Origin: a virus
Lineage: Duplodnaviria > Heunggongvirae > Uroviricota > Caudoviricetes
IMG/VR virus record: IMGVR_UViG_2526164604_000012
DNA length: 24,334 nucleotides
Strand: one strand, 5' to 3'
Part shown: piece by piece, positions 15,001 to 21,000 of the stretch
How the letters are laid out: the number at the start of each line of letters is the position of its first letter
How positions within the stretch are numbered: position 1 is the first letter of the stretch
Program-made: the position numbers

Positions 15001-18000
15001 ACCTGACGGAGCCAGTGACAAAGCGATCAGTGTGCATTCGACAGATCCACAGACAGCCACTGTGACCCTGAACGGACTTGTGGCCACGGTGAAAGGCGTG
15101 AAGCAGGGCAGCGTCAGCATTGTGGGCATGACCGCTGACGGGAATTTTGTGGCTGTGGCTGCGGTGACTGTCAGCGCTGCAGGTTAACAGGACGATACTC
15201 ATCATTTGCCCCGGTTATCCGGGGCTTTTTTGCAGGTGGAGAACATGATGTTTCTGAAACAGGGCACGTTTAATTATGAAAAGCAGTCCGTGGTGCTCAG
15301 TGAGCTGTCCGGGCTGCAGAGAATTGAATATCTGGCGTTTGTTCAGCAGCGAACGGCAAAGTTTGATGCCGAAGAGGGAGAACTGCCGGAGGCTGAACGA
15401 CAGATTGCTTTTCTGCGGATGGGGATGGATATCAATGCCTGGCTGGTTTCCCGCTCACTGTGGAATGCGGAACAGTCTCAGGATGTTGAGACGCTTTGCG
15501 CATCCGTTATTACAACATGGTCGTATGATGCCCTGGGAGCGGGGGCGGAGATGGTTCTGTCGCTGAGCGGTATGGGAGCCATTGAGAATGCCGGGGATTT
15601 GGAGCATGAGGTGCTGACGCCGGAAAAGTCCTGACGCGGGAAATGCAGTTTGTCATGCGGCTTGCCCGGGAGTTCCGGCGGGCAGACTGGCGGCGGATGC
15701 TGTCGGAAATGTCGGCCACTGAGCTTGGTGAGTGGGGCGATTATTTCCGGATGCAGAGCTTCAGTGATGTGTGGATGGATGCGCAGTTTGCCTCGCTGAA
15801 GGCATTGATCGTGAGAATGGTGTCCGGTAGCAGTGATGCTGCGGTGGCTGATTTCAGCCTTTTACCGGAAGAGAACGGGATACCGGAGCGAACGGACGAA
15901 GAACTGATGCATCTTGGGGAAGGTATTTCCGGAGGTGTGCGTTATGGACCAGATAGCCAACCTGGTCATTGATTTGGGGATTGATGCGGCAGAGTTTAAA
16001 AATGAAATTCCCCGTATCAAAAACCTTCTGAATGGTGCAGCCAGCGATGCAGAACGGTCTTCTGCCCGTATGCAGCGTTTTATGGAGCGTCAGACTCAGG
16101 CCGCCCGGCAGACAATGCAGGCGGCTTCTTCGGCTGCAACAGCCGCATCCGTCCATGCGCAGACGGTGGAGAAGAGCGCACAGGCTCATGAACGCATGGC
16201 CCGCGAGGTGGAGCAAACCCGCCAGCGTATGGAGGCACTGAGCCAGAAAATGCGCGAGGAACAGGCGCAGGCCATGGCTCTGGCGGAGGCTCAGGATAAA
16301 GCGGCTGCTGCGTTTTATCGTCAGATTGACAGTGTGAAACAGGCCGGTGCGGGGCTGCAGGAATTACAGCGTATTCAGCAACAGATCCGACAGGCCAGAA
16401 ACAGTGGCGGGATTGGTCAGCAGGATTATCTGGCGCTGATTTCTGAGGTTACGGCGAAAACCCGTGTTCTTACACAGGCTGAGGAAGAGGCTACCCGACA
16501 GAAAGTGGCGTTTATCCGTCAGCTTAAAGAGCAGGCAACCCGCCAGAATCTTTCTTCTTCTGAGTTGCTTCGTGCTAAGGCTGCCCAGCTGGGGGTAAGC
16601 AGTGCTGCAGAAGTGTATATCCGCAAAATGGAGCAGGCAGGAAAAGCCACGCATTCGCTGGGTCTGAAAAGTGCAGCAGCCCGTCAGGAGATAGGCGTTC
16701 TGATAGGTGAACTGGCCCGCGGCAATTTAGGTGCGCTGAGGGGATCCGGAATAACGCTGGCTAACCGTGCCGGGTGGATAGACACACTGATGTCACCGAA
16801 AGGCATGATGCCAGGAGCGGTTATTGGCGGTATTGCCGCGGCTGTCTATGGTCTGGGTAAAGCCTGGTATGACGGTCAGAAGGAGGGGGAAGAATTTAAC
16901 CGCCAGCTGTCGCTGACGGGGCATTATGCCGGAGTCACTGCCGGGCAGCTGTGGACGCTCAGTCGTGCTATTTCCGGGAATGGTATCACGCAACATGCTG
17001 CAGCCGGTGCGCTGGCTCAGGTGGTGGGGAGTGGTGCATTTCGTGGAAACGATATCGGTATGGTGGCGAGAGCTGCCGCACAGATGGAGCGATCGGTTGG
17101 CCAGTCGGTCAGCGATACCATAAATCAGTTTAAGCGGCTGAAGGATGATCCTGTAAATGCCGCGAAGGCTCTGGACAATGAGCTGCATTTTCTTACTGCC
17201 ACTCAGCTTGAGCAGATACGCGTCCTTGGGGAGCAGGGGCGGTCCAGTGATGCTGCACGGATAGCCATGTCTGCACTGGCAGAGGAAACCGGTCGGCGTA
17301 CTGCGGATATTGATAATAACCTCAATGCGCTTGGCAGTACGCTGAAGTATCTGTCTGATTTGTGGAGTCGTTTCTGGGATGCGGCCATGAATATTGGTCG
17401 TGAAGACTCGCTGGATGAACAGATTGCCGCTTTACAGGAGAAAGTGTCGCGGGCGAAAAGACTCCCCTGGACGGCATCATTGAACCGCCCCGGAAATCCT
17501 GGAGACTAAACTCCCTGAGAAAGAGGTAAACAGGATGACTAAAAATACTCGTTTTTCCCCCGAAGTCCGTCAGCGGGCGATTCGTATGGTTCTGGAAAGT
17601 CAGGATGAATATGACTCACAGTGGGTGGCAATTTGTTCCATTGCCCCAAAGATTGGCTGTACGCCGGAGACTCTGCGTGTCTGGGTTCGCCAGCATGAGC
17701 GGGATACCGGGGGCGGTGATGGTGGGCTCACCAGCGCTGAACGTCAGCGTCTGAAAGAGCTGGAACGTGAAAATCGTGAACTGCGCCGCAGTAACGATAT
17801 CCTTCGCCAGGCTTCCGCTTATTTTGCGAAGGCGGAGTTCGACCGCCTCTGGAAAAAATGATGCCACTGCTGGATAAGCTGCGTGAGCAGTACGGGGTCG
17901 GACCGGTATGCAGCGAACTGCATATTGCCCCGTCAACGTATTACCATTGTCAGCAACAGCGACATCATCCGGATAAACGCAGTGCCCGTGCGCAGCACGA

Positions 18001-21000
18001 CGACTGGCTGAAGAGAGAGATACAGCGCGTATACGATGAAAATCATCAGGTGTACGGTGTGCGTAAAGTCTGGCGTCAGTTGTTACGGGAAGGAATCAGG
18101 GTGGCCAGATGTACAGTGGCACGTCTCATGGCGGTTATGGGACTTGCCGGTGTTCTCCGGGGTAAAAAGGTCCGTACGACCATCAGCCGGAAAGCCGTTG
18201 CCGCAGGCGACCGCGTAAACCGTCAGTTCGTGGCAGAACGACCTGACCAGCTGTGGGTGGCTGATTTTACTTACGTCAGCACATGGCAGGGCTTCGTCTA
18301 TGTGGCGTTTATCATTGATGTGTTTGCCGGATACATCGTGGGGTGGCGGGTCTCATCGTCTATGGAAACGACATTCGTGCTGGATGCGCTGGAGCAGGCG
18401 TTGTGGGCCCGTCGTCCGTCTGGCACCATCCATCACAGCGATAAAGGCTCTCAGTATGTGTCACTAGCCTATACGGAGCGACTAAAAGAAGCCGGATTAC
18501 TGGCATCAACAGGGAGTACAGGCGACTCGTATGACAACGCGATGGCTGAGAGCATCAATGGTCTTTACAAAGCGGAGGTAATACACCGTAAGAGCTGGAA
18601 AAACCGTGCAGAAGTGGAACTGGCCACACTAACGTGGGTGGACTGGTATAACAATCGACGATTGCTGGGAAGGCTGGGCCATACTCCTCCGGCAGAAGCA
18701 GAAAAAGCTTATTATGCTTCCATCGGAAACGATGATCTGGCAGCCTGAGTTCACAGATAAAACACTCTCCAGGAAAACCGGGGCGGTTCACATCTTCTCA
18801 GGTTGAATACGATCAGCAGCGTCTTAACGATCTTCAGGAGAAAAAACGCCAGAAGGATTTGCAGGATGCAAAAGAGCAGGCAGAGCGGAATTATCAGGAG
18901 CAACAGAAACGCCGTAATGCTGAAAATGCTGCACTGAACCGGATGAATGAAACGGAAGCAGCACGACATCAGCGTGAAATAGCGCGTATTAATGCCATGC
19001 AGTACGCCGATCAGGCTGTCAGGGATGCGGCGATACAACGTGAAAATGAACGTTACGAGAAAGCCCTGGCATCCGGTAAGAAAAAAACACGCGAAACCCG
19101 TAATGATGAGGCCACCCGGTTATTGCTGCAGTACAGTCAGCAACAGGCACAGGTGGAAGGACAGATTGCTGCTGCCAGACAGTCAGCAGGCATTGCCACG
19201 GAAAGGATGACAGAAGCGCGTAAACAGCTTCTGGCTCTGCAGCAGCGCATCAGCGACCTGGACGGGAAAAAACTGACGGCAGATGAAAAGAGTGTGCTGG
19301 CCCGTAAAGATGAACTGATTCAGGCACTGACGCTGCTGGATGTAAAACAGCAGGAGCTTCAGAAACAGACGGCACTCAACGAGCTGAAGAAAAAAACAAT
19401 TCAGCTGACCAGTCAACTGGCTGAAGAAGAGCGCGCTCAGCGTCAGCAACATGACCTGGATATCGCCACGGTGGGTATGGGTGATCAGCAGCGACAGCGA
19501 TATCAGGTACAACTGAGTCTTCGCCAGAAATACCAGCAACAGCTGGAGCAGTTGAGGCGGGATAGTGAGCAGAAAGGGACATATAACACGGATGACTACA
19601 GAAAGGCCGAGCAGGCGCTGACGGAGAGCCTGAACCGACAACTGAATGAGAATCGCCGTTACTGGCAACAGCTTGAAGTTGTACAGGGTAACTGGAAAAA
19701 CGGAGTCCTGCGTGCATTTCAGGATTTTACCGTGGATGCAGATAATACGGCAGAAACAGCAGAACAGGTGTTCTCGTCAGCCTTCAGCAACATGGGAAAT
19801 GGCCTGGCAACTTTTGTCACTACCGGCAAACTCAATTTCAAATCCTTCACCTCTTCTGTGCTGTCAGATATGGCGAAAATCCTGGCGCAGGCAACCATGA
19901 TGAAATCGATAAAAGGGATTGGCAGTGTACTGGGATTTGATCTCAGCAGCCTTTCCCTGAATGCCAATGGGGGGATTTATCAGTCTGCTGATTTGAGTCG
20001 TTACAGTGGCACGGTGGTTAACCGTCCGACGTTTTTTGCTTTTGCAAAAGGCGCGGGTGTGATGGGGGAAGCGGGACCTGAAGCCATTCTGCCATTGCGT
20101 CGTGGTGCTGACGGTAAGCTGGGGGTTGTGGCGGATATTGGGGGTTCAGGTATGGCGATGTTTTCCCCGCAGTACAACATCGAGATCAATAACGATGGCA
20201 CGAACGGGCAGATAGGTCCGGCTGCCCTGAAGGCGGTTTATGACCTCGGGAAAAAAGCGGCAGCGGACTTTATGCAACAGCAGGCCCGTGATGGTGGTCG
20301 GTTAAGTGGAGCATATCGGTAATGGAGACGTTTCACTGGAAAGTGCGCCCGGATATGAATGTGGTATCAGAGCCGAAAGTGGTGACAGTGAAGCTGGGCG
20401 ATGGTTATGAACAGCGTCGTGCGGCGGGACTGAATAACCAGTTGTCGACTTACAGCGTGACGATACGTGTTCGTAAATGTGAACACCCATCTTTAAAAGC
20501 CTTTCTGGAACGGCACGGTGGCGTCCGTGCATTTCAGTGGACGCCACCTTATGACTGGAAACCGATCAGGGTGGTTTGTCGTAAATGGTCGGCAAGCGTG
20601 GGGGCGCTGTGGGTAACCATAACGGCAGATTTTGAACAGGTCGTGGCATAGGAGGCTCTGATGCAGGATATTCCACAGGAAACACATCATGAGACGACAC
20701 GCCTCACTCAGTCAGCCCAGGCGGTGCTCTGGGAAATCGATCTGACAGAGGTCGGTGGTGAACGTTATTTTTTCTGTAATGAGCAGAACGAAAAAGGTGA
20801 GCCGGTTACCTGGCAGGGGCGGCAGTATCAGGCATACCCCATTCAGGGGACGGGATTTGAACTGAACGGCAAGGGCAGTTCTGCCCGTCCGACACTGACG
20901 GTTTCTAACCTGCACGGCATGGTCACGGGGATGGCGGAAGACCTGCAGAGTCTGGTCGGCGGAACGGTGGTCCGGCGTAAGGTTTACGCCCGTTTTCTGG

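Follow-up and report, generated by a model that had tools for sequence, protein, structure and literature searches.

How did the tape measure gene of an Escherichia coli prophage come to be divided by a transposable element, and what did the prophage lose by it? The question is raised by the viral record IMGVR_UViG_2526164604_000012, a stretch of 24,334 nucleotides (hereafter, the window) that corresponds to contig AKMA01000009.1 of E. coli O157:H7 TW10119, one of 26 O157:H7 drafts announced together (PMC3593324). A copy of the insertion sequence (IS) IS629 lies here in the middle of the tail gene H. An initial annotation, made from the sequence alone, had proposed a simple insertion that prevents the prophage from making a tail. 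The explanation that best accounts for the evidence as a whole, and which we hold to be very nearly certain, is a single transposition of IS629 into the tape measure gene of the lambdoid prophage CP-933K/Sp3 within a small sublineage of O157:H7.

Borders and identity of the IS629 element

The element occupies 1310 bp (17481–18790, plus strand, in the same orientation as H), as determined by reading of the sequence and by script, and it starts with TGAACCGCCCCGG and ends with CCGGGGCGGTTCA. Its left (17481–17505) and right (18766–18790) terminal inverted repeats, both recorded on the plus strand, are 25 nt long and 88% complementary, and they constitute the sole pair returned by a repeat search of positions 17300–19000. 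The characteristics of IS3-family ends, namely a length of about 1.3 kb, imperfect inverted repeats and termini of the form 5'-TG...CA-3', are all found in the window element (TGAACC...GGTTCA). The initial annotation had placed a complete 1310-bp IS629 with inverted repeats at 17481 and 18790, and these coordinates proved exact to the base.

Full-length matches to the 1310 bp are present in thousands of E. coli records. Alignment to other IS629 copies, suggested as a check with the initial annotation, gave 99.8–99.9% identity to those of other O157 strains (99.9%, or one mismatch, for 86-24, FORC_044 and others), the element compared being the multi-copy O157 element called IS629 in the literature and assigned to the IS1203 family by RefSeq (for the name, see PMC3271280, PMC9943667). 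The NCBI label of the element is 'IS3-like element IS1203 family', and the O157 copies are labelled by RefSeq as 'IS3-like element IS1203 family transposase, programmed frameshift', with an additional 'AL1L pseudoknot' feature. A match of 100% is found only at the equivalent locus of O157:H7 F6667. Given the identity to full-length O157 copies, a chance origin of the element is excluded. An IS629 inverted repeat of the form CCGGGAATCC would have implied that the ends are mutated here, a reading that was rejected as other O157 copies share the ends seen in the window; the form GGGAATCC is found in a divergent IS variant of strain E203449, which is described below.

The split tape measure gene and its empty site

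The interrupted gene is of the phage lambda H type. Its 5' fragment (15944–17480, plus strand) carries the Pfam domain TMP_2 (E 1.9e-49) and its 3' fragment (18794–20322, plus strand) the domains TMP_4 (E 9.7e-17) and Tape_meas_lam_C (E 1.8e-22), such that the N-terminal domain stands on the opposite side of the IS from the two domains of the C-terminal half. Both fragments are nucleotide-identical to H of EDL933, which is intact and encodes 1021 amino acids, whereas in the window the gene is no longer a single reading frame: the insertion falls at about codon 512 of 1021 and leaves parts of 512 and 509 amino acids. Translation of the 5' fragment runs into the IS and stops at 17509, 10 codons inside the element, to give a chimeric product of 521 amino acids (GenBank EIO85171.1).

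The lambda counterpart, gpH, shares with this gene both its TMP_2 and Tape_meas_lam_C domains and its place in the order G, T, H, M, L, K, I, J, with H in F6667 and EDL933 following the G/GT chaperone genes and preceding M, L, K, I and J in the RefSeq annotation; Phage_TAC_2 and Phage_tail_T are likewise found upstream of H. The lambda tape measure protein is 853 amino acids long. The window-type protein differs in having 1021 amino acids when intact, and in being split here. A promoter and terminator consensus scan of IS629, bearing on polarity over the downstream tail genes, gave nothing above shuffle expectation.

The trinucleotide CAT stands on either side of the element (17478–17480 and 18791–18793), while EDL933 reads GGCATCATCTTC at the insertion point, with a single CAT. 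IS629 is reported to produce a duplication of 3–4 bp at its target (PMC3271280). In-silico excision of 17481–18793 yields one open reading frame (ORF) that reads ...RLPWTASSSQVEYDQQRLNDLQEKKRQKDLQDAKEQ..., and the excised window shows 0 nucleotide differences from EDL933 over the entire 3066-bp H gene. When the empty site is rebuilt over 800 nt, from 400 nt on either side with a single CAT, it agrees at 100% with genes annotated as an intact 'phage tail tape measure protein' in EDL933, 86-24, Xuzhou21, SS17 and many other O157:H7 strains. Among complete E. coli records, 1,829 contain at least 80% of this reconstruction as a single unbroken stretch, annotated as an intact tape measure protein, and in 941 the identity reaches 99% or more.

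The empty site with its single CAT and the identical flanks therefore show that the element inserted in a simple manner, duplicating 3 bp, and that the flanks have neither lost sequence nor decayed since. This bears out what the initial annotation had claimed on each of these points, the CAT duplication, the exact rejoining of the H frame and a simple insertion with no secondary deletion, and the intact homologues continue uninterrupted through the site rather than holding an unrelated sequence there, the observation that it had named as contrary to its reading. It is the EDL933 empty site that demonstrates the duplication; the restored frame was rejected as evidence for it, as excision of the 1310 bp without a CAT keeps the frame too.

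Distribution and age of the allele

When 5,426 complete genomes were searched, the filled left junction turned up in one piece in a single genome, O157:H7 F6667, in which RefSeq annotates the two halves of H as pseudogenes ('missing C-terminus' for the 5' half and 'missing N-terminus' for the 3' half) flanking an IS3-like IS1203-family transposase with programmed frameshift. The H–IS chimera EIO85171.1 is recorded for TW10119 and is also found in about 12 contigs from other assemblies or read sets. Public annotation of TW10119 and F6667 already shows the site, and the event is an ordinary IS629 insertion of a known kind. Because the allele is rare and neither half of H has acquired substitutions, its origin appears to be recent, in agreement with the relative recency suggested by the initial annotation.

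The window and F6667 share four single-nucleotide polymorphisms (SNPs) with respect to EDL933. The possibility that the two are identical was rejected on account of 11 differences, all of which fall within a 2.1-kb stretch (22131–24264) that spans tail genes I and J near the 3' end of the contig. These differences form tight clusters, for example at 22131, 22134, 22142 and 22143, and EDL933 matches F6667 at 11 of the 11 positions. The patch arose either by exchange with the paralogous tail region of another prophage or because reads from paralogous regions were mixed in the draft assembly.

As a further observation, TW10119 and F6667 share one rare H::IS629 allele, and TW11039 and F8798 share another, which is described below; each pair consists of a draft and a closed CDC genome. 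The members of each pair may be the same isolates under two collection names, or, in the case of TW10119 and F6667, otherwise sister isolates.

Transposition machinery and a private substitution

The coding organization of the element is that of the IS3 family. The gene orfA (17535–17861, plus strand; 108 amino acids), identified from the ORF list, encodes a helix-turn-helix (HTH) domain (HTH_Tnp_1, Pfam PF01527, E 2.4e-12), and orfB (17858–18748, plus strand; 296 amino acids) encodes HTH_21 (E 3.7e-18) and the DDE core of the rve family (E 9.3e-28). The catalytic residues of OrfB are D136, D195, E231 and K238, with a spacing of 59/36 and the lysine at E+7. The two frames are related as 0 and −1, and a −1 shift at an A6 slippery run (17853–17858, plus strand) would produce a 404-residue OrfAB transposase, for which the fused translation is open; RefSeq annotates a 'programmed frameshift' at the equivalent coding sequence of F6667. 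An ALIL pseudoknot (17816–17932, plus strand) is matched over its full length by Rfam RF01497 with 121.5 bits (gathering score 50) and an E-value of 1.2e-32. ALIL is a frameshift-stimulating RNA of IS3-family elements. All sequence features required for IS3-family transposition are present in the window copy, both ORFs being intact as the initial annotation had stated, together with the inverted repeats, slippery site, pseudoknot and DDE residues. Judged by these features, transposition competence is plausible, and the suggestion of the initial annotation to that effect is reasonable.

The window copy thus has in common with the IS629 copies of O157:H7 (IS3 group; isoform names IS1203 and IS3411) its length of 1310 bp, identical ends, OrfA and OrfB in frames 0 and −1, the A6 run, ALIL, the DDE(K) residues and a 3-bp duplication, and like most of them it resides in a prophage. 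It differs in its site, in that H of Sp3/CP-933K is absent from the four-genome table of phage-associated target sites in PMC3271280, where Sp3 is unlisted, and in one private substitution. The latter is a C-to-T change at position 17626 (plus strand; GCG to GTG) that replaces Ala31 of OrfA with Val, within the HTH domain. In alignment with four other copies it is the constant difference from all four and the sole difference from two of them, while the remaining one or two mismatches are private to the comparison copies. A 31-mer centred on 17626, which matches only copies with T as megablast needs an exact 28-base word, found one match in the 5,426 complete genomes, at the equivalent locus of F6667. 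The probe matches one locus only, and the substitution is therefore private to this copy; no second copy bearing it was found with this probe in F6667, the sole closed genome that carries the insertion. The junctions as well as the private substitution are thereby reproduced independently in a closed genome.

A31V could be taken for a unique and perhaps disabling change, but this view was weakened by a second IS629 sublineage, 98.6% identical to the window copy (18 mismatches), in which the same Val31 OrfA protein is native. Members of that sublineage occupy other chromosomal sites, one beside a FUSC-family gene and one elsewhere, so that valine at position 31 is in keeping with a relative that is naturally mobile.

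A separate observation concerns a metagenome contig carrying a 98%-identical relative from the Val31 sublineage (2447–3241 of that contig), which stops matching at IS position 795. An ORF of group II intron type (RVT_1 and GIIM, 3898–5327) lies about 650 bp downstream, an arrangement that suggests one mobile element nested within another.

The host prophage

The prophage adjoins the bio operon (ybhC ... ybhB-bioA) and corresponds to CP-933K of EDL933 and Sp3 of Sakai. It was already defective before IS629 arrived. The genes N, cI, cro, O and P are missing from the EDL933 and F6667 copies, in which a truncated bet abuts ninE almost directly (710–1593 of the F6667 stretch and 5125–6008 of the EDL933 stretch, upstream of the window region), and a truncated antiterminator remnant is present in prophages of the CP-933K type. 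The integrase gene of EDL933 is frameshifted (968–2034 of the compared stretch), the F6667 stretch compared ending short of int. In the window itself the portal gene, of the lambda family, is split by a frameshift into 9214–10338 and 10460–10795, the N-terminal part covering positions 3–324 of the 354 of Phage_portal_2 and the rest following in a different frame. The same split, with identical protein accessions, is seen in EDL933, and it is therefore older than the IS629 insertion. This agrees with the scoring of the Sp3 portal as defective by Asadulghani et al., who found that Sp3 of Sakai is without repressor and replication functions, is defective in integrase, recombination and portal, and does not circularize, replicate or undergo packaging, while its tail genes were scored as intact (PMC2669165).

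What IS629 has removed is thus one of the last modules that were still intact in an immobile prophage; a live phage has not been disabled. The claim of the initial annotation that no functional tail can be made holds as a fair inference for H, but not in its implication that the IS is what disabled the prophage, which is defective in uninterrupted strains too. On the strength of lambda biology, we firmly infer that a tape measure that has lost its C-terminal half would be unable to support tail assembly.

The prophage carries lpxR, and the full locus also carries nleB2, nleC, nleH1-1 and nleD. As the prophage was already immobile, no change is expected in the mobility of the effectors NleB2, NleC, NleH1-1 and NleD. 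The lpxR gene, for a lipid A deacylase (Pfam LpxR, E 6.8e-40), is seen at 577–1536 on the minus strand, as reverse-oriented cargo between a 72-nt antiterminator remnant and Q.

Comparable IS inactivations are known from the prophages of Sakai, such as the IS in nu1 of Sp4, where a single essential virion gene of an O157 lambdoid prophage is likewise interrupted and the 'defective prophage pool' is similarly enlarged (PMC2669165). In Sakai, however, the tail genes of Sp3 were scored as intact, whereas here the tape measure gene is hit and the allele is confined to a small sublineage.

Other IS629 insertions in H

Two further complete genomes, those of O157:H7 F8798 and of E203449 (Mali), have a 1310-bp IS629-type element in H (3042–4351 of the F8798 stretch and 3039–4348 of the E203449 stretch). 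Both elements are oriented as in the window and sit at one and the same nucleotide, with a GTC duplication; the F8798 allele is also present in TW11039. These insertions resemble that of the window in gene, orientation, full length of 1310 bp and a 3-bp duplication, but differ from it in the duplicated sequence and in the site, which lies 391 bp downstream, equivalent to approximately 19184–19186 of the window within the 3' fragment of H. The IS of F8798 is of the O157 type, with 2 differences from the window copy, and its H is identical to that of EDL933. In E203449 the IS is a variant of about 96% identity, differing from the F8798 IS at approximately 54 positions, and H is 98.3–99.0% identical. 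From these sequence differences, the GTC-site insertions in F8798 and E203449 look like independent events that match to one nucleotide. No motif common to the CAT and GTC sites was obvious by eye, and the two cases at the GTC site are a hint that H could be a hotspot for IS629.

Alternative explanations

Could the arrangement in the window be an artefact, in which the consensus of a multi-copy element was misplaced into H during assembly? TW10119 is a short-read draft (PMC3593324), an O157 genome holds about 20 near-identical copies of IS629, and the 11 odd SNPs cluster near the contig end; the contig may indeed partly mix paralogous reads. This last point, together with the position of A31V in a DNA-binding HTH domain, where it could in principle lower activity, counts against the interpretation of a genuine insertion by a competent element. 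The closed F6667 genome, however, has identical junctions and the private IS substitution at that locus only, which excludes misassembly, and both the clean 3-bp duplication and the chimeric protein in several other assemblies or read sets speak against an artefact, to which we give practically no credence. It is likewise very improbable that the H::IS629 allele arrived ready-made, through homologous recombination with a different strain or lambdoid prophage. The lambdoid prophages of O157 do recombine with one another (PMC2669165), and the SNP patch at 22131–24264 is consistent with an exchange in the tail region. Against this, the halves of H are those of the resident CP-933K gene, to the nucleotide, the junction occurs in no complete genome other than F6667, and the IS is of the O157 type, 1 nt from common local copies. 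A donor would need to have been this very prophage in an almost identical strain, which amounts to the same event.

A transposition into H need not have been a matter of neutral decay; it could have been favoured, either because H is a hotspot or because knockout of a cryptic tail module is advantageous. Three H::IS alleles are known among complete genomes, and those of F8798 and E203449 share nucleotide and orientation despite IS variants that differ at some 54 positions and H genes that differ by 1–2%. On the other hand, among about 1,830 records with the H segment, only 3 show an IS in that stretch and in that orientation, the window site differs from the repeated GTC site with no obvious motif in common, IS629 is reported to lack a sequence-based target, and 62% of its copies lie within prophages or prophage-like elements in any case (PMC3271280). 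We consider a favoured insertion unlikely. The narrower proposition that H of the CP-933K/Sp3 type holds preferred landing sites, with the GTC nucleotide hit twice in unrelated strains and the insertion of the window as a third within the same 400-bp stretch, is doubtful but could be entertained; if true, it would point to structural or regional targeting by IS629, or to selection for the silencing of tail modules in cryptic prophages.

Course of events and significance

A single transposition of IS629 into H is envisaged as follows. A full-length element entered the middle of H in the cryptic prophage in a small O157:H7 sublineage (TW10119, F6667 and some others), a staggered cut producing the 3-bp CAT duplication and leaving the flanking DNA whole. 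Translation of H now halts 10 codons into the IS, with TMP_2 parted from TMP_4 and Tape_meas_lam_C, and the gene cluster of the window would be unable to supply a working tape measure. IS629 retains all the parts for IS3-family copy-out/paste-in transposition, and further movement may be possible. The interruption may also be reversible: O157 strains usually carry a gene for the IS-excision enhancer (IEE), a factor stimulating transposase-dependent excision of IS629 (PMC9943667), and removal of the element from H by this route is conceivable.

Many gene-inactivating polymorphisms of O157 have been attributed to IS629 (PMC3271280, PMC9943667), and its insertion polymorphisms are a standard marker for O157:H7 subtyping and lineage reconstruction (PMC3271280). 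The H::IS629 site marks a small sublineage, comprising TW10119, F6667 and a few read sets, and has little importance beyond strain typing. As a pool of defective prophages can recombine to mobilize virulence genes (PMC2669165), the practical effect of the insertion would be that one intact tail module is lost from those available to the recombining defective prophages of the strain. The loss of a donor of tail genes for recombination among its lambdoid prophages is thus a plausible biological cost.

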